Positions 3,212 to 15,878 of a DNA stretch of 16,955 nucleotides are shown here, piece after piece. The position numbers and the translations under genes were made by a program. The notes under the pieces were generated by a model that was given only the letters and a program-made list of their open reading frames with translations, ran no database searches and was not told the DNA's origin. The stretch is from Candidatus Thorarchaeota archaeon (GTDB lineage Archaea > Asgardarchaeota > Thorarchaeia > Thorarchaeales > Thorarchaeaceae). The DNA lies in the NCBI GenBank assembly GCA_003345555.1, contig PRDJ01000070.1:1-16955 (forward strand), given 5' to 3'. Position 1 is the stretch's first letter. Every line of letters begins with the position of its first letter.

Positions 3212-3417
3212 CCTCAGCCATAGAGCACTATTCCTATGTCTGGTCGTGGAGACAACTGGAACGTGGTCCGTAGCAGGACATAGACAGAATCTTACCAACC
3301 CAGTAGAAGGAAACTGTACCTACGTAGACGTGAACTCCAAGACTACAATTGCAGAACGAACCCATGACCAGAACTCTTTATGAGCACAAGTCACATCGAC
3401 CCTCAGCGAGGTTCCCA

Positions 3418-3900
3418 ATGAGGAAGATAGCAGTTGTCCTTGGCCGCGGAGGTCACACAGCTCAGACATTCGCCCTTCTTGATCTGCTGGGACCAAGATT
3501 TCGCTATCTCTACATGGTTGACCTTCTTGACAAGCTGACACCGAAGAAGATTCGGATACCGGGCAGGGTATTGCCAGTGATTCAGCCTCGCCTTCTTCCC
3601 CAAGACTCGAGAATCATGTCCGCTCTGCGAACTTTGACAACGCTTCTATTGTCCTTCGTGTATCTTCTCGTCAGCCGTCCCAGTGTCGTTGTGAGCTGCG
3701 GAACGGGGCTAACTGTTCCCGTCTTTTACTCTGCTCGACTGTTGGGCTTGAAAACCGTTTACATTGAAAGCATGTCACGCGTGGAGACTCTGTCGATAAC
3801 CGGCAGGATTCTGCTCGGCAGAACAGATCTCTTTGTTGTACAGTGGCCTCGTCTTGCAGAACGGACACGAGGAGCTGTATATGGAGGTCAGCTGCTATGA
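3418..3900 (+). CDS. alg14: Alg14-like UDP-GlcNAc transferase subunit (Alg14/PssD/Cps14F family)
   Basis: VVLGRGGHT (G-x-GGH), RPSVVVSCGTGLTVPV, TVYIESMSRVETLSITGRIL and FVVQWP.L match Alg14. Start set at ATG 3418 (MRKIAVVLG); the longer TTG-led ORF has a low-complexity leader. Confidence 0.9.
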   Translation: MRKIAVVLGRGGHTAQTFALLDLLGPRFRYLYMVDLLDKLTPKKIRIPGRVLPVIQPRLLPQDSRIMSALRTLTTLLLSFVYLLVSRPSVVVSCGTGLTVPVFYSARLLGLKTVYIESMSRVETLSITGRILLGRTDLFVVQWPRLAERTRGAVYGGQLL

Positions 3901-4358
3901 TCTTTGTAACAGTCGGCACGGCATCGTATGACCCTCTCATTGCTGAAATTGATCGCTTGGTGGGAGAGGGAACTATCAAGGACAAAGTCGTTGCACAGAT
4001 AGGGCGAGGCTCATACATTCCCAAGAACTTCAGATACTTCAGGTTCATGCGCTCGCTGGAGCCAGCATACAAGCGCGCCGAAGTGATAGTAAGCACAGGC
4101 GGCGCGGGCACTACGATGGAGTGCGTAAAGAAAGGACTCAAGCTTGTCGTTGTCGAAAACAAGGATCTCATGGAGGGGCATCAAGCGCAGCTTGTGGGGG
4201 AGATGTCGAGAAGAGGCCACCTCATTTGGTGCAAGGAGCTATCATCTCTGCCTCAGTGCATTTCTGATGCGAGGCGGCGATCCTTCACCAAATTCGTGAG
4301 CGACACTCCAAGAGTGCATAGCCTCATACTGGATTTGCTCCGGAGAGACAACCTTTGA
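3897..4358 (+). CDS. alg13: Alg13-like glycosyltransferase family 28 C-terminal subunit (Alg13/PssE/Cps14G family)
   Basis: MIFVTVGT, VVAQIG, AEVIVSTGGAGT, LVVVEN..LMEGHQ.QL. ATGA start/stop overlap with alg14 at 3897-3900 indicates translational coupling. Confidence 0.9.
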   Translation: MIFVTVGTASYDPLIAEIDRLVGEGTIKDKVVAQIGRGSYIPKNFRYFRFMRSLEPAYKRAEVIVSTGGAGTTMECVKKGLKLVVVENKDLMEGHQAQLVGEMSRRGHLIWCKELSSLPQCISDARRRSFTKFVSDTPRVHSLILDLLRRDNL

Positions 4359-7340: not shown

Positions 7341-7350
7341 ATTTATGTAT
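7341..7350. promoter_or_regulatory. Putative bidirectional TATA region (ATTTATGTAT)
   Basis: Single AT-rich patch in the 109-nt divergent gap between ATG 7295 (minus) and ATG 7405 (plus). Confidence 0.4.
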
Positions 7351-7404
7351 TGTCAAGCATCACAGCAGCCGTCACACATAGGATTGAAACCGCGAGGTCG
7401 GACT

Positions 7405-8862
7405 ATGGCGAAAACTCCCGAAGACCAGATACCTACCAGCGATGAGGGCGAAATGATTGACAAACTACTAATTGAGCTGGGTGTCGACGAGGCGATGAAA
7501 CGCAAGCTGATCGAGTCAGGAAGGCTGTCGAAAGACATCTTCAAGGTCGAGTCGGCAGAACAGGTGCGTAGGCGAATAGAGATGGAGAAGAGCTCGGAGC
7601 GGGTTCAAGATAGCCTTCATCTCATTGAGCGCGACATGACGACAATCGATACGGGCATTGACAGGATTGAGAGAGACTTGGTTCCTGTTGTCCTATCATT
7701 CTTGGTCGGTTTGAAGGGCAATCTGGTCGCTCTTAGAGGGAACATCGTAACTAGAAGTAAGAAGCAGGCCAAAACGAACTTGCAGGCCCAGTACATCGAT
7801 ACCGAAGTGAGGCAGATTGTTGACGAGTCGTTCGGCAAGGTAGAATCAACGCTTACGGCCGAGATGGCATCTCCGATTCTTGAGAAACTGCGCGAGCTGA
7901 CTGAAGGCCTGAAAGGATCATTGAAGCTTACAACTGAAGAACTCACTAACCTAAAGGCAAGCCTAGATGACTTGACGCAGAGAAGCTCGACCGAAGTTGA
8001 GTTCTTGACGAAGGAACTCACCATGAAGCCCCGCCTAGAAGTCCCGAAAGAGGTTTCTGACCAGTTGAAAGCGATGGAACGCCAAATTGAGGAGCTGAAG
8101 AGGGACTTTGACCTCTCGGAACAGAGAGTCAAGAATCGTGAAAGCGAAGTTTCTGCACTACAGCAGGAACTATCAGTGACAAAAGCCCGAAGTGGTGAAC
8201 TCGAGGATAGAGTCGCCCGCCTGCGCTCCGGTCCTGTAACAGACTCAGCGACATTGGTCGAACTCAGGCAAAACATCAGATCACTTCAGGCTTCACAAGG
8301 AGTTCTGGAGGAGAAGCTCAGCGAAGAAGCCAGAAGATACGAGGAATCGGAAACAAAGGTGAAGCAGTATGCCTCGGACCTCGCAAGAACCGAACTCAAT
8401 CTGCAGGATGCCCTCGCGCGGATTCAGGAACTCGTGGATGAAATAAACAGATCTCGTGAGCGTCTGGCAGAGATAGATGACCTTGAGTCCCGAATAAGAA
8501 CTTACGAGTCAGGCGACAAGATGCGGGAACTCGACAGAATAAAGACCGAACTGGACCGCACATCAGCATCCCTGCAGAGACTGAGCTCGGACCATTCGGA
8601 AGCGCTTGAGACACTGGCGTACCTGCAGAAAAGACTTGATGGTTACCTCGGGCTAATGCAATCCACGGAGAAAACCAGGGCTTTCCTTATGCTTGAGGAG
8701 ACAGGAGAGCTCGCGGTCAGAGAGATTGCGAGGTCTCTGGGAATAGCACCTGCCACCGCCATGAAATGGGCTGAGGACTTCCAGAGGCTCGGCATTGCCA
8801 GACTGGTCGATGGCAAGACCTTGGTCTTGATATTGAAGAAGCCAGTAAAGGGAGAAGCCTGA
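7405..8862 (+). CDS. Long coiled-coil protein with C-terminal winged-helix domain
   Basis: About 200 residues of E/K/R/L/Q-rich heptads (VSDQLKAMERQIEELK through LAYLQKRLDGY), then RAFLMLEETGELAVREIARSLGIAPATAMKWAEDFQRLGIARLVDGKTLVL (HTH plus beta wing). ATG 7405 has GAGGT 6 nt upstream. Confidence 0.85.
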   Translation: MAKTPEDQIPTSDEGEMIDKLLIELGVDEAMKRKLIESGRLSKDIFKVESAEQVRRRIEMEKSSERVQDSLHLIERDMTTIDTGIDRIERDLVPVVLSFLVGLKGNLVALRGNIVTRSKKQAKTNLQAQYIDTEVRQIVDESFGKVESTLTAEMASPILEKLRELTEGLKGSLKLTTEELTNLKASLDDLTQRSSTEVEFLTKELTMKPRLEVPKEVSDQLKAMERQIEELKRDFDLSEQRVKNRESEVSALQQELSVTKARSGELEDRVARLRSGPVTDSATLVELRQNIRSLQASQGVLEEKLSEEARRYEESETKVKQYASDLARTELNLQDALARIQELVDEINRSRERLAEIDDLESRIRTYESGDKMRELDRIKTELDRTSASLQRLSSDHSEALETLAYLQKRLDGYLGLMQSTEKTRAFLMLEETGELAVREIARSLGIAPATAMKWAEDFQRLGIARLVDGKTLVLILKKPVKGEA

Positions 8863-10959: not shown

Positions 10960-11841
10960 ATGTTATTATCTGAGATTGTGAGTACATTCGTTAGGATGTG
11001 CGCGACCAGCGATTACGAGGAACACGTGCGTTACGTCTCGCTCGTGCGGAGAGAAGGCGGTGAGCCGGTCATAGGCATAACCTATCGCGAGATGAGTGTG
11101 GATCCTGATCTGGTCGCCAGTTTCGTCCTTGCGGTAATCATCTTCGAGAATAGGCAGTTGAGGAGGTTTGTGAAAGAGGGGTATGTAGTTGTAATCGAAG
11201 AAGGGAAAGAGATGGTCGGGCTACTTATCATAGACAAGGTCGAAGACGAGGACCCCTACAGAGAGGTCTTGAAGGGCATCATCAGGACCTTTGAAACTGT
11301 GTACGAAGCTCAGTTGGAAAGCTGGAAAGGAGATGTCAGACCTTTCAGAGAATTCGCTCTGAGCATCTTAGGTGCATATCCTTATCGCAGGTTTGACTGG
11401 GAGCTTGTTCCCAGATTATCAAGGAAATCGGACCCTGCATTCGAAGGATATGCTCCGATACCCTGGAGCGTTGGTGAAGCAGACAAGAAGATACAGACTG
11501 TCGTGAGCTTCGTTAATGGCAAAAGAACGATACTTGAAATAATGCAGTCGACTGGTCTGTCTCAAGAGGACATGGTGGCTATTGTCTCAATCCTCGACCA
11601 CTTTGGCTGGGCAACCTTTGGCAGAAAGATAACCGCGGAAACGTACCTTGTCAAGGTGAGCGACCCGCACAAGTTCCTCGTCGGCGTATACGGAGAACAG
11701 ATCAATCGGTTTGTTGAACTCTGCGATGGAACCAAGAACTTGGAAGATGTAGCGGCCCTTCTTTCCTATAGCATGGAGGTATTGCTGACTGTTGCGAAGA
11801 GCCTTGTGGACGCAGGGGTGCTCGGGTTCGGTGAGACCTAA
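10960..11841 (+). CDS. Longin-like domain + two winged-helix domains (NPRL2/NPRL3-like), paralogue 1
   Basis: N-terminal VRYVSLV..EGG...DPDLVASFVLAV..F...IEEG...LLII...Y...L..I...FE.VY...L.SWKGD..PF.EF (Asgard longin pattern), then FVNGKRTILEI...LDHFGW and LCDGTKNLEDVA...LVDAGVL (two wH repeats). Alternative start ATG 10996. Confidence 0.75.
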   Translation: MLLSEIVSTFVRMCATSDYEEHVRYVSLVRREGGEPVIGITYREMSVDPDLVASFVLAVIIFENRQLRRFVKEGYVVVIEEGKEMVGLLIIDKVEDEDPYREVLKGIIRTFETVYEAQLESWKGDVRPFREFALSILGAYPYRRFDWELVPRLSRKSDPAFEGYAPIPWSVGEADKKIQTVVSFVNGKRTILEIMQSTGLSQEDMVAIVSILDHFGWATFGRKITAETYLVKVSDPHKFLVGVYGEQINRFVELCDGTKNLEDVAALLSYSMEVLLTVAKSLVDAGVLGFGET

Positions 11842-11913
11842 TCACGGACGAAGGCGTTCAGATGCCGTATTGCTCTATCCGCGCCCAGTATGTGGTCTTG
11901 GCACAGGAGAAGC

Positions 11914-11920
11914 CTTATAT
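11914..11920 (+). promoter_or_regulatory. Putative BRE/TATA (GGAGAAGC-CTTATAT) for paralogue 2
   Basis: CTTATAT preceded by a purine-rich stretch, in the gap between the two longin genes. Confidence 0.5.
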
Positions 11921-11992
11921 CAGGCGCGACGAAGGCTCGACTCTCCCAACGCCTCACAGCCATATTCGCCGTGATTGAGGGTGTTGATGCGG

Positions 11993-12814
11993 ATGCCGCT
12001 GGATGTATCTAAGGTTCGGTATGTGTCATTGATTCGCCTTGAAGGTGGCGAATCGATTCTAAACATACCGTACGCGGAGATGACAGTCGATCCTGACTTG
12101 ATAGCAGGATTCGTATCCGCAGTAATCATCTTTGCAAAGACACCCATTAGAACGATCCGTAAAGCCGCGTATGACATTCTCATAGAAGTTGGACAAACAG
12201 TCCTCGTGCTCTTGGTTGTTGATCCTGTTGCTGATGAGGCGCCCTATCGCGAACGTCTTATCAAGATACTCAAGCTTGTTGAAGAGGAGCACGGTGACAA
12301 GATACGGGCCTTCGAGGGAGACATAAGGCGATTCAGAGAGTTTGCGTTGGCCATACTTACAGAGTTTCCTTACGGTGAACCTGACCTCAACTTGGTTCCA
12401 GCACGCCGAAAGGAGGGTCAGCACATACCGTTCCGAGTGGGACTTATCGACACCAAACTTGAGAAGCTCGAGGGCTTCATAAACGGCAAACGCACGATTG
12501 GCGAGATAATGAACCTAATCGACATGCCGGATACCGAAGTCGTTGCCCTAGTCTCGATTCTTCAAAAATATGGGTGGATTGACTTTAAGAAGAAGCTCGT
12601 AGAATCGGATAGGCTCAGCAGGCGAGACTGCACACCCCAAGTGTTGCTGAAACTGAGAGGAGAATACGGCACACCGGTCGACGACATACTCAATGCCTGC
12701 GATGGAACCAGACGCATCAAGGATATTATGGATTCCCTGCAATACGACAGAAACGCGATATGGTTCTTGGTCAACAAGCTCGTTGAAGTTGGATGCCTAG
12801 CAGTTGCCCAATAG
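11993..12814 (+). CDS. Longin-like domain + two winged-helix domains (NPRL2/NPRL3-like), paralogue 2
   Basis: Same architecture as paralogue 1: VRYVSLIRLEGG...DPDLIAGFVSAV, FINGKRTIGEI...LQKYGW, ACDGTRRIKDI...LVEVGCL. 28 of the first 40 aligned residues are identical to paralogue 1 (hand count). ATG 11993 is 9 nt after GAGGGTG; alternatives are 11987 and 11975. Confidence 0.75.
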   Translation: MPLDVSKVRYVSLIRLEGGESILNIPYAEMTVDPDLIAGFVSAVIIFAKTPIRTIRKAAYDILIEVGQTVLVLLVVDPVADEAPYRERLIKILKLVEEEHGDKIRAFEGDIRRFREFALAILTEFPYGEPDLNLVPARRKEGQHIPFRVGLIDTKLEKLEGFINGKRTIGEIMNLIDMPDTEVVALVSILQKYGWIDFKKKLVESDRLSRRDCTPQVLLKLRGEYGTPVDDILNACDGTRRIKDIMDSLQYDRNAIWFLVNKLVEVGCLAVAQ

Positions 12815-12815
12815 T

Positions 12816-13640
12816 CTACAGGATTGTGTCAGATCCAGGAATGCCTACAACATCTGCCCTGCACTGGTGGCAATGGTAGAACTGCTTGACATGCTTCCCG
12901 GCTTCTGCCCTTGCTTGTTCTAATCTGCTCAAGCTCGGTGGCCTGCATCCTGACATAGTTCCACAAGGTACAAGCGGAATGACGTTCTGAAGCTCAGCCC
13001 CAGCAGCCGCAACGTCCTCTGCCAACTTGGCAATGTCCCCTTCGTTGACCCCGGGAATAAGCACAGAGTTGATTTTCACATGGATTCCGGCATCTGTTGC
13101 GTCCTTGATTCCTGCAATCTGGATCCTTACGATTGTCTTGCCCATGTCGAGTCCGGTCATCCTCTTTCCACGAATGTCAGCCCATTCATAAATCGTTGCA
13201 GCGGTTGCAGGACTGCTTGTGCTCATTGAAACGCTCAGACCGTTAACACCAAGATCGACAAGCTGTCTCACACAATCCCCAAGGAGCACTCCATTCGTGC
13301 TCAAACAGAAATGCACCTTATGTTCGTTGTTCAGGAGACGAGCCATTACCTCGAATGTGGCGGCGTTAATCAACGGTTCGCCAGGTCCGGCTACGGCGAC
13401 GATACGAAGATTCGGTCTCCGGCTCAGCTCTCTCTCAGCCACGTCGACGGCTTGGCCGGCTGACATGATTCTACCTGCACTGCCGGGACGATGTATCTGA
13501 CATGACATTTGTGTCCAGCCATCGCAAAATGCACACTTGACATTGCAGGCTGTCGCCACCGGCAGGTGGATTCTTTCCCAAAGGTCTGTTCTGTCTTCTG
13601 ACCAACACGGGTGGTGCTGGTTCAAGTACGAATCTGTCAT
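12816..13640 (-). CDS. nifB: NifB-like radical SAM protein (stand-alone SAM domain, no NifX domain)
   Basis: HPC, RIHLPVA..CNVKCAFC (CxxxCxxC), RPG, AGPGEPL, CLSTNG, KINSVLIPGVN, N.IPL.P and HCHQCRADVVG (CxxCRxDxxG) are the NifB motif set. Confidence 0.8.
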   Translation of the reverse strand: MTDSYLNQHHPCWSEDRTDLWERIHLPVATACNVKCAFCDGWTQMSCQIHRPGSAGRIMSAGQAVDVAERELSRRPNLRIVAVAGPGEPLINAATFEVMARLLNNEHKVHFCLSTNGVLLGDCVRQLVDLGVNGLSVSMSTSSPATAATIYEWADIRGKRMTGLDMGKTIVRIQIAGIKDATDAGIHVKINSVLIPGVNEGDIAKLAEDVAAAGAELQNVIPLVPCGTMSGCRPPSLSRLEQARAEAGKHVKQFYHCHQCRADVVGIPGSDTIL

Positions 13641-13689: not shown

Positions 13690-14073
13690 TCAGGATAGTA
13701 TCTTGAGGAGTTTGGTTACTTCCCTTGCTAACTTCTTAGCATCTGAGAAAACCAAGCCCGTTCTGGCAATATCAGGCGCGGTCACCGCAAGGAGATACCC
13801 AGGAGGGATAGCTATCACAATTGTCTTGCCTGTCGTCCCTTCGACGATTATGGACTTCAGTGTGCCTTGGCGCAATTCCTGGACTGTTTGAGTACTCGCA
13901 GAGTGAAGGCTGGCTACAATCGCGGCCACTGCTACCTCTTCTGTTCCTGCATGGAAATAGCTAACAAATGGAAGGCCCTCAATACTGAATATGGCTGCCC
14001 CGAGTACGGGTGAGGTGTTACAAAGATCCTTCAACGCCTGTTTTAGAACCGAGGGCACACTTTCGGCGCTCAC
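13690..14073 (-). CDS. Roadblock/LC7 domain protein (MglB/LAMTOR-like)
   Basis: LKQALKDL...VLGAAIFSIEGLPF...VAAIVASL...ELRQGTLKSIIVEGTTG..IV.....LLAV.......GLV..D.KK.A.EV matches the roadblock pattern. GTG 14073 gives 127 aa; the ORF-track extension to 14169 looks non-coding. Confidence 0.9.
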   Translation of the reverse strand: MSAESVPSVLKQALKDLCNTSPVLGAAIFSIEGLPFVSYFHAGTEEVAVAAIVASLHSASTQTVQELRQGTLKSIIVEGTTGKTIVIAIPPGYLLAVTAPDIARTGLVFSDAKKLAREVTKLLKILS

Positions 14074-14208
14074 TTGTCTTGAATGCCTGGATTCTGGCAA
14101 GACACACGACTCCCCTTTCGGAGTTGATACTACAGCCAAGATGTTCCAGATTGATAAAGCTTGGCGCAAGCGGGTTGTATGGTATCAATGACCAAGAGAC
14201 GCAGTAGG

Positions 14209-15260: not shown

Positions 15261-15740
15261 TCAGAGGATGTCCTTGATCAGCTTCACTTCTTGGGTCTCG
15301 TCGTCGTAGGACACCAACTGGGCGTTTCGAAGGTCATGGATTGCCTTGATTACTGCAGTTGGCATGATACCTGTACTCGACTCCAGGTTCTTCCTTGTGA
15401 TAGCTGTCTTCGTGTTGTGCAGAGTGTAGAGGACCCGAGCATGCGGCTTTCCTCCAAAGACAGTCTCAATGAGCGTTATGTAAATGGCAAGCAAGTCACT
15501 AACGTCCACTTTTTCCTTGAGCTTGTCTTTCTCTGCTGACGCCTCTCTGTAGAGTTCTGAGACTCGCTGGAGCTGCTCAGTTATTTGAGACATCTCACTC
15601 TTGAGCTCGTCGCGCTCCTTCGTGACATCCTCTAGAGCTCTTGAGGATTGACCCGCCTTATCGAGGTCGTCAAGGAGCCCTTCGATTCTTGTTCTTAGCT
15701 CATCAACCTGCTGAAGCATGCTGCTTCTATCCGATACCAT
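15261..15740 (-). CDS. Short coiled-coil protein with C-terminal winged-helix domain (paralogous head to 7405..8862)
   Basis: About 75 aa of heptads, then HARVLYTLHNTKTAITRKNLESSTGIMPTAVIKAIHDLRNAQLVSYDDETQEVKL. ATG 15740 has GAGGAG 6 nt upstream and a TATA at 15775-15780, so it is preferred over 15875. Confidence 0.85.
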   Translation of the reverse strand: MVSDRSSMLQQVDELRTRIEGLLDDLDKAGQSSRALEDVTKERDELKSEMSQITEQLQRVSELYREASAEKDKLKEKVDVSDLLAIYITLIETVFGGKPHARVLYTLHNTKTAITRKNLESSTGIMPTAVIKAIHDLRNAQLVSYDDETQEVKLIKDIL

Positions 15741-15774
15741 TTGGCTCTCCTCAATCTTGGATATGGATAGCCGC

Positions 15775-15780
15775 TTTATA
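15775..15780 (-). promoter_or_regulatory. Putative TATA box (TATAAA) for the short coiled-coil-wH gene
   Basis: Minus strand GTGAAACTCATATAAAGCGG, 35 nt upstream of ATG 15740. Confidence 0.55.
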
Positions 15781-15878
15781 TGAGTTTCACATATACATGC
15801 CGCGGCCCCGCGAGGAAGGCTACGGTTATCCCGTTTCTTAGTCTGACCGTGACCAATCTCACCAACAGAAGCCATGGT

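Follow-up and report, generated by a model that had tools for sequence, protein, structure and literature searches.

In this work, two adjacent genes, here called P1 and P2, were analysed in a stretch of 16,955 nucleotides (nt) from Candidatus Thorarchaeota archaeon (assembly GCA_003345555.1, contig PRDJ01000070.1, forward strand), hereafter the window. P1 and P2 are lineage-specific tandem duplicates of an Asgard NPRL2-like family whose members join a longin domain to two winged helices (wH), and they are distant homologues of NPRL2 and NPRL3, subunits of the eukaryotic GATOR1 complex. Being a lineage-specific tandem pair of an Asgard family that has already been reported, they are not a surprise. 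In the text of Liu et al. available to us (bioRxiv 10.1101/2020.10.19.343400; Nature 2021), an 'NPRL2-like' family is described in most Thor metagenome-assembled genomes; P1 and P2 are almost certainly members of it, and the distribution found here reproduces the one given in that text. A first-pass annotation, made from the letters of the window, had cautioned that Asgard surveys might already report such proteins, and this caution proved justified. What is new here is the breadth of the pair, the duplication inside the lineage, a genus with P2 only, a class-wide paralogue fused to a GTPase, and the missing canonical arginine finger. The accessible text of Liu et al. mentions neither a conserved tandem pair nor the loss of P1 in one genus nor a GTPase-fused paralogue, and no mention of the tandem pair was found in the literature searched.

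Architecture of P1 and P2 and their relation to NPRL2 and NPRL3

10996..11841, + strand: P1 gene, an NPRL2-like longin-wH-wH protein of 281 amino acids (aa) from the ATG at 10996
11993..12814, + strand: P2 gene, a paralogue of P1 with 273 aa from the ATG at 11993

The longest open reading frames (ORFs) of the two genes are co-oriented and span 10960-11841 for P1 (ATG 10960, 293 aa) and 11975-12814 for P2 (TTG 11975, 279 aa); the starts at ATG 10996 and ATG 11993 were taken from the N-termini of orthologues. P1 and P2 share 40% identity across 274 residues (BLASTP, E 1e-62) and are therefore clear paralogues. The orthologues of P1 at the 26 Thorarchaeia loci that hold it show 54-86% identity. 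ORFs on the opposite strand across the P1/P2 stretch are short, and no homologues of them were found. The adjacent, co-oriented paralogues noticed in the first-pass annotation were recovered, with 27-28 identities in the N-terminal 40 residues, and the motifs quoted there, GD.R.FREFAL.IL..(Y/F)PY, LVP and (N/D)G.(R/K).I.(E/D)I, are all found in both proteins. The wH repeat motifs of P2 read INGKRTIGEI and CDGTRRIKDI.

The first AlphaFold2 model, of P1 with 25 close orthologues, had a predicted local distance difference test (pLDDT) score below 50 across much of the longin and was confident only in its C-terminal half; domain boundaries were therefore taken from a model of P2. The latter was built on alignment A2, which holds 50 diverse sequences (orthologues of both proteins, the copy from the sister family, and remote relatives in other Asgards retrieved by an exhaustive HMMER search), and it reached a pLDDT of 88.5 and a predicted template modelling (pTM) score of 0.80. 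The modelled order is a longin domain β1-β2-α1-β3-β4-β5-α2-α3, a short connector strand with the LVP motif, and two winged helices with pLDDT 87-96. The longin elements are β1 8-15, β2 21-26, α1 34-47, β3 54-57, β4 60-66, β5 70-76, α2 83-105 and α3 111-124. The longin of the P1 model shows the same β-β-α-β-β-β-α order as P2, though at low confidence.

12002..12379, + strand: P2 longin domain, residues 4-129, from the P2 model
12380..12628, + strand: P2 connector strand with LVP (residues 130-149) and winged helix 1 (150-212), from the P2 model
12629..12811, + strand: P2 winged helix 2 (residues 213-273), from the P2 model
11014..11391, + strand: P1 longin domain (7-132), positioned from its alignment with the P2 model
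11473..11838, + strand: P1 winged helices 1 (residues ~160-222) and 2 (~223-281), from the P1 model, pLDDT 82-94

An architecture of longin plus two winged helices had been proposed from the sequence, and the P2 model agrees with it; the P2 longin aligns with that of Sec22b over 118 residues (Z 15.6, root-mean-square deviation (rmsd) 2.1 Å; VIA-align). The segment GD.R.FREFAL, which had been taken for a linker, is helix α3 of the longin, at residues 111-124 of the confident P2 model. The longin identity of the N-terminal domain comes from structure alone, in this case a predicted one. In Pfam, P1 has a weak winged-helix match only (HTH_47, a helix-turn-helix (HTH) family, E 2e-4); across the family, 22 of 50 members match HTH_47 and seven match HTH_NPRL3 (best E 1.6e-4).

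NPRL2-NPRL3 (Npr2-Npr3 in yeast) is the longin core of GATOR1/SEACIT, the GTPase-activating protein (GAP) for RagA/Gtr1. In both subunits, a longin domain is joined to at least two winged HTH repeats (Levine et al., 2013, PMC3747258). Like P1 and P2, they are thus paralogous subunits with an N-terminal longin followed by tandem winged helices. With Foldseek, the models of P1 and P2, which were built independently, both retrieved these proteins first. The top 13 PDB matches of P1 are all GATOR1 NPRL2/NPRL3 or yeast SEAC Npr2/Npr3, and the top 12 of P2 are all NPRL2/NPRL3/Npr2/Npr3, with E 6e-7 to 3e-4 and 320-370 aligned columns for the two models together. Among 550,129 Swiss-Prot AlphaFold models, the top five for P2 are NPRL2 of fly, human, S. 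pombe, cow and mouse, with matches that span residues 2-270 (E 4e-9 to 5e-7). Other longin GTPase regulators rank below NPRL2/3 for full-length P2. The TM-scores against NPRL2/NPRL3 are low (0.34-0.40, rmsd 10-13 Å) and the relative orientation of the domains differs, so what is shared is the order of the domains and their local geometry rather than one rigid shape of the whole. P1 and P2 are also about 100-300 residues shorter than NPRL2/NPRL3.

Sequence profiles lead to the same proteins. When profile A2 was compared with 177,635 PDB sequences (HMMER), human NPRL2 was the best match (E 3.3e-4) and yeast Npr2 was found at E 0.024. The alignment is confined to the connector and wH1 region, where A2 positions 129-203 align to residues 166-239 of human NPRL2 (6ces_N). 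The stretch of NPRL2 quoted in the first-pass annotation is real, since the same stretch is reproduced in this alignment. Profile A1, made of close orthologues only, retrieved nothing except noise from the PDB sequences, and the more diverse A2 was needed to reach NPRL2. The proposal that NPRL2/NPRL3 are the nearest known proteins is thus borne out by the fold search and by the PDB profile search: the N-terminal domain models as a longin, and the best profile match is human NPRL2, not a generic regulator. By rigid-body comparison, VIA-align puts Sec22b, Fuzzy, VAMP7 and Ykt6 above NPRL2/3, which fall outside its top 50. In our reading, matches of single domains dominate this ranking, and it does not speak against the full-length relationship.

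Distribution and origin of the tandem pair

The NPRL2-like family was found in 80 of the 81 sampled Thorarchaeia genomes (E <= 1e-5), including all 24 high-quality genomes. Weaker relatives occur phylum-wide in 187 of 201 genomes, with named members from Lokiarchaeia, Baldrarchaeia and others. The adjacent co-oriented pair, P1 followed by P2, is present in at least 63 of the 81 Thorarchaeia genomes and in at least 15 of the 17 genera. In 15 of 29 fetched loci the two genes overlap by 1 nt or lie no more than 3 nt apart; the remaining pairs have spacers of 30-150 nt, and that of the present window is 151 nt.

In a maximum-likelihood (ML) tree, the P1 and P2 clades are each monophyletic (support 100/100 and 100/99). 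The sister family, with its one copy, falls outside P1, P2 and two more Thorarchaeial paralogue groups (support 92/93), and the copies of other Asgard classes lie further out. The tree was midpoint-rooted and has some long branches. Since P1 and P2 are nested in Thorarchaeia and the sister family and other classes have single copies, the duplication took place inside Thorarchaeia, independently of that of NPRL2/NPRL3. Judged from these sequences, it runs parallel to the split between NPRL2 and NPRL3 and was not its source. The term 'proto-GATOR1', under which the pair had been described in the first-pass annotation, is therefore not supported.

GTPase link and proposed function

The strongest functional clue is a class-wide fusion to a GTPase which, as far as sequence can tell, points to GTPase regulation. 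A third longin-wH-wH paralogue forms the C-terminus of a protein of ~650 aa, in which an N-terminal domain of ~110 aa is followed by an Arf/Roc/Ras-type G domain, whose DxxGQ motif is intact, and then by the complete module. Examples with this order of G domain and full module are P0131, P0142, L049:7277-9235 (- strand) and L050:4667-6598 (+ strand). ORFs of the fusion type (610-683 aa) occur in more than 30 Thorarchaeia genomes, including the window's genus, and in the sister family, and the fused paralogue forms a separate clade in the ML tree (support 100/99). In MGY5880388.1, an example annotated as 'ADP-ribosylation factor-like protein', the last 270 residues are homologous to P1/P2 over their full length; this part of the fusion matches the family profiles at E 1e-33 to 1e-71. 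The difference from P1 and P2 is that the module is covalently joined to a G domain and an extra N-terminal domain. The fusion was not found in the window's own assembly, which is 93% complete. The same genome has 16 Ras-family matches, of which two are relatives of the N-terminal/G-domain part of the fusion without the module and 14 are others; Arf-like proteins are encoded at C77:60461-62107 and C39:60686-61531 of the assembly. No clear GTPase of the Rag/Gtr type (a G domain with a C-terminal roadblock domain) was recovered: a search of the genome with Gtr1_RagA gave only weak matches (best E 5.8e-8, 32.5 bits), four of the five are at loci that score far better as Ras-family, and none is on the contig. 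Pfam IML1 (PF12257; DEPDC5/Iml1, the third GATOR1 subunit) has no match in the window's genome, but the control genomes are equally silent, so this result is uninformative.

Some side observations concern the same genes. In another genome of the window's genus (G029), a 573-aa protein with a divergent copy of the module adjoins the fusion gene (L049:9331-11049). In the window's genome (G000), contig C36 carries longin-type relatives at 55936-56217, 66753-67130 and 67750-68091, within ~55.9-68.1 kb, and this cluster is close to a Ras-family GTPase at C36:57840-58319. Furthermore, the second winged helix of several family members (e.g., L044:8045-8953) matches Pfam DUF742. In the 'conservon' operons of actinobacteria, DUF742 is the winged-helix component, next to genes for a roadblock protein and a small GTPase.

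We hypothesize that P1 and P2, as lineage-specific tandem NPRL2-like paralogues, act as a longin-dimer platform regulating a small GTPase, and we consider this explanation as a whole to be fairly probable. The two proteins would most probably dimerise via the edges of their longin sheets, as other longin/roadblock proteins do, whether P1 pairs with P2 (heterodimer) or each protein with itself (homodimers). Such a dimer would be a platform that binds a Ras-superfamily small GTPase and regulates it as a GAP, a GEF (guanine nucleotide exchange factor) or a scaffold. The likeliest target would be one of the Arf-like GTPases of the genome, because across Thorarchaeia the third paralogue of the module is found fused to a GTPase of this kind. 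The winged helices, which are acidic, may serve protein-protein contacts, as in NPRL2/NPRL3, and not DNA binding. A longin/roadblock dimer is the GTPase platform in FLCN-FNIP, C9orf72-SMCR8, Mon1-Ccz1, Fuzzy-Inturned, the TRAPP longins and the bacterial roadblock protein MglB; of these and related proteins, Fuzzy, Mon1/Ccz1, TRAPP, LAMTOR and MglB are domain-level structural matches to P2 (Z 10.9-13.7, VIA-align). The other longin GTPase regulators have DENN domains, an extra longin or no C-terminal domains, whereas P1 and P2 have two winged helices.

Several observations weigh against this explanation. The longin domain alone has no sequence-level likeness to NPRL2 or any solved longin; when a longin-only profile (A4, 40 sequences, including the longin modules of large multidomain Asgard proteins) was compared with the PDB sequences, neither a longin nor NPRL2 was retrieved. 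Neither P1 nor P2 matches Pfam NPR2 (PF06218) or NPR3 (PF03666), even when E values up to 10 are allowed, and NPR2 is found in only 2 of 50 family members, below threshold (E 0.038). Winged helices can also bind DNA or peptides, and there are weak matches to MarR, IclR, TrmB and PqqD. None of the genome's GTPase genes is on the window's contig. When synteny was followed across the phylum, the pair was syntenic in Thorarchaeia, while the other Asgard classes have one copy at their loci and no neighbour in common with the window. Finally, as judged from the aligned sequences, the canonical arginine finger is absent from P1 and P2.

Moreover, P1 is absent from part of the lineage. Genus g4 (three genomes, 96-99% complete) keeps P2 and has no P1 at the syntenic locus, and no P1-type match was found elsewhere in the three genomes. 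A P1-P2 heterodimer therefore cannot be obligatory, and P2 is evidently able to work without P1. The 'proto-GATOR1 heterodimer' suggested in the first-pass annotation is only partly supported: the resemblance to NPRL2/NPRL3 is real, while an ancestral status and an obligate pairing find no support. In genome G028, of the window's genus, P1 (C4:272565-273406) is split in two frames (172 + 118 aa) next to an intact P2, as either a frameshift pseudogene or an assembly error. At the g4 loci L069 (G003), L070 (G004) and L071 (G013), both P1 and the DUF2797 gene that precedes it in the window are gone, and P2 comes directly after a radical SAM gene; the loss looks like a single deletion that removed two adjoining genes.

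Some of these facts bear on a doubtful alternative, namely that P1 and P2 are two sub-functionalised homodimers regulating GTPases (different ones, or under different conditions) and that the tandem is only a trace of the duplication. The ancestor was presumably a homodimer or a monomer, since the sister family and other classes have a single copy; P2 persists without P1 in g4, and solved Asgard roadblock/longin proteins are homodimeric (PMC10933270; PDB 8yqg, 9jue). About half of the pairs have spacers of 60-150 nt, that of the window included (151 nt), so translational coupling is not required. However, the overlap or spacing of <=3 nt in the other half suggests co-translation at a fixed ratio, and the two copies have been kept next to each other in no fewer than 63 of the 81 genomes and at least 15 of 17 genera. 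The clade-specific invariants P24/S21 and R31/A28 would also fit complementary roles in one complex.

11197..11211, + strand: P1 β4-β5 hairpin E-E-G-K-E, strand positions from the P2 model, no Arg
11056..11067, + strand: P1 β1-β2 loop motif G-G-E-P (residues 21-24), from the orthologue alignment
11086..11088, + strand: P1 Arg31, just past strand β2, invariant in P1, with invariant Ala28 in P2

In human NPRL2, the arginine finger is Arg78, placed in the loop before strand β5. The first-pass annotation had seen no Arg in the predicted β4-β5 loop of P1 and P2, which holds for the window proteins and for every aligned orthologue: the hairpin is E-E-G-x-x in all P1 and E-V-G-x-x in all P2 orthologues (EEGKE and EVGQT in the window). 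Conserved Arg residues are found elsewhere, at the end of β1 in both proteins and at Arg31 in P1 only. Arg31 (R43 in the 293-aa numbering) is at least 90% conserved in the orthologue alignment. Among 13 P1 and 13 P2 orthologues, Pro24 is invariant in P1, and P2 has an invariant Ser21 (G-G-E-S). In the GAP longins NPRL2, FLCN, SMCR8 and C9orf72, a GP motif ends the β1-β2 loop (PMC12290439). The G-G-E-P loop of P1 sits at the position of this motif yet is not a literal G-P, and in the wider family only the Gly is near-invariant. P1 and P2 thus differ from NPRL2/NPRL3 in a hairpin without Arg and in a G-G-E-P or G-G-E-S loop in place of G-P.

The asymmetry of the two paralogues (Arg31/Ala28, Pro24/Ser21) is suggestive, and one active and one scaffolding subunit would suit it. 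P1-P2 could be an asymmetric heterodimeric longin GAP/GEF of an Arf-like GTPase, in which P1 is the catalytic or contact subunit (Arg31, G-G-E-P) and P2 the scaffold, acting with the Roadblock protein encoded nearby. We regard this specific form as rather unlikely. If it were true, a division of labour of the NPRL2/NPRL3 style would have evolved a second time, independently, in an archaeon and with a non-canonical arginine. A prediction of the P1 + P2 complex (full length, alignments A3 + A2) gave interaction prediction scores from aligned errors (ipSAE) of 0.02 and 0.01 against a mark of 0.32, was made with no controls, and speaks neither for nor against binding.

It is quite improbable that P1 and P2 are transcription regulators in which the longin senses a ligand or partner and the winged helices bind DNA in the manner of MarR, IclR, TrmB or ArsR. 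Some family members have weak Pfam matches to HTH_IclR, HTH_24, TrmB, MarR and HTH_5, profile A2 matches MarR-family chains in the PDB at E 0.004-0.005, and some relatives in AFDB clusters are automatically annotated as 'ArsR family transcriptional regulator'. Moreover, the winged helices of NPRL2/3 themselves might bind DNA (Levine et al., PMC3747258). On the other hand, P1 and P2 are acidic (isoelectric point (pI) 4.9 and 5.5), which argues mildly against DNA binding; wH2 has a pI of 5.0, and wH1 is mildly basic (pI 8.65). The best matches in sequence and fold are the protein-binding winged helices of NPRL2/3, above any DNA-binding regulator, and class-wide the module also occurs joined to a small GTPase.

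Gene neighbourhood and biological meaning

The genes on the P1/P2 strand are, in order, PD-(D/E)XK, transglutaminase-like, coiled-coil/HTH, an AmmeMemoRadiSam-type radical SAM (rSAM389), DUF2797, P1 and P2. Downstream of P2, on the opposite strand, lie a NifB-like radical SAM, Roadblock/LC7 and two unknown proteins.

3349-3900 and 3843-4358, + strand: Alg14-like and Glyco_tran_28_C (Alg13-like) genes, overlapping
7345-8862, + strand: coiled-coil protein 1, SMC/Rad50-like coiled-coil match, C-terminal HTH (Pfam)
12816-13640, - strand: NifB-like radical SAM, 274 aa, TIGR01290 at E 5e-62, below the family cut-off
13690..14169, - strand: Roadblock/LC7 gene, Pfam Robl_LC7 at E 4e-12, convergent to P1/P2
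14209-15213, - strand: conserved 334-aa protein, no Pfam/NCBIfam match
15261-15875, - strand: coiled-coil protein 2, SMC/Rad50-like coiled-coil match, weak DUF5847

A block of ~15 kb is syntenic across the fetched Thorarchaeia loci. In all 20 fetched Thorarchaeia loci that cover this side, those of the sister family among them, the Roadblock gene is beside the family gene. In the sister family, the single copy has the upstream radical SAM and DUF2797 genes as neighbours as well; neither arrangement is found in other classes. As the block is syntenic within one taxonomic family, adjacency carries little weight. The Roadblock gene is context, and its partnership with P1/P2 is putative. The idea, based on synteny, that P1 and P2 share an operon with DUF2797 and the radical SAM gene was rejected: the block is family-wide, breaks in g4 and in G077, and is missing in other classes.

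The last alternative, which is very improbable, would make the winged helices PqqD-like, with P1 and P2 presenting a substrate or peptide to the flanking radical SAM enzymes (AmmeMemoRadiSam-type and NifB-like) and DUF2797: Pfam PqqD does match 5 of 50 family members (best E 8e-4), the peptide-recognition winged helices of LynD, TruD and MusD appear at E 0.5-1.8 in the profile search of the PDB, and the order rSAM389-DUF2797-P1-P2 is co-oriented and syntenic across Thorarchaeia and the sister family, but the PqqD-type matches are weaker than that to NPRL2, G077 lacks DUF2797 beside an intact P1-P2, g4 lacks DUF2797 and P1 beside P2, the NifB-like gene is absent at the sister-family locus, in other Asgard classes the family stands without any of these neighbours, and the adjacency may reflect relatedness alone, given that the 15-kb block is syntenic in one taxonomic family.

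Other features of the window were noted in passing. No nif genes were found in it besides the NifB-like gene. The 334-aa protein always adjoins the Roadblock gene, also in the sister family (39% identity there). The two coiled-coil proteins, each conserved across Thorarchaeia, lie on either side of the convergent gene runs. The Alg14-like and Alg13-like proteins would be the two halves of a eukaryote-type UDP-GlcNAc transferase of N-glycosylation.

In eukaryotes, nutrient signalling at the lysosome is under the control of longin GAP complexes (GATOR1, folliculin, C9orf72-SMCR8). P1 and P2 do not answer where such complexes came from, because the family has already been reported and the duplication is lineage-specific. 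The pair does offer a practical experimental system: both proteins are small and look soluble, the natural fusion indicates the probable class of GTPase, and the clade-specific invariant residues can be mutated. Such a system could show whether archaeal NPRL2-like longins act on small GTPases, and whether heterodimeric asymmetry arises repeatedly.

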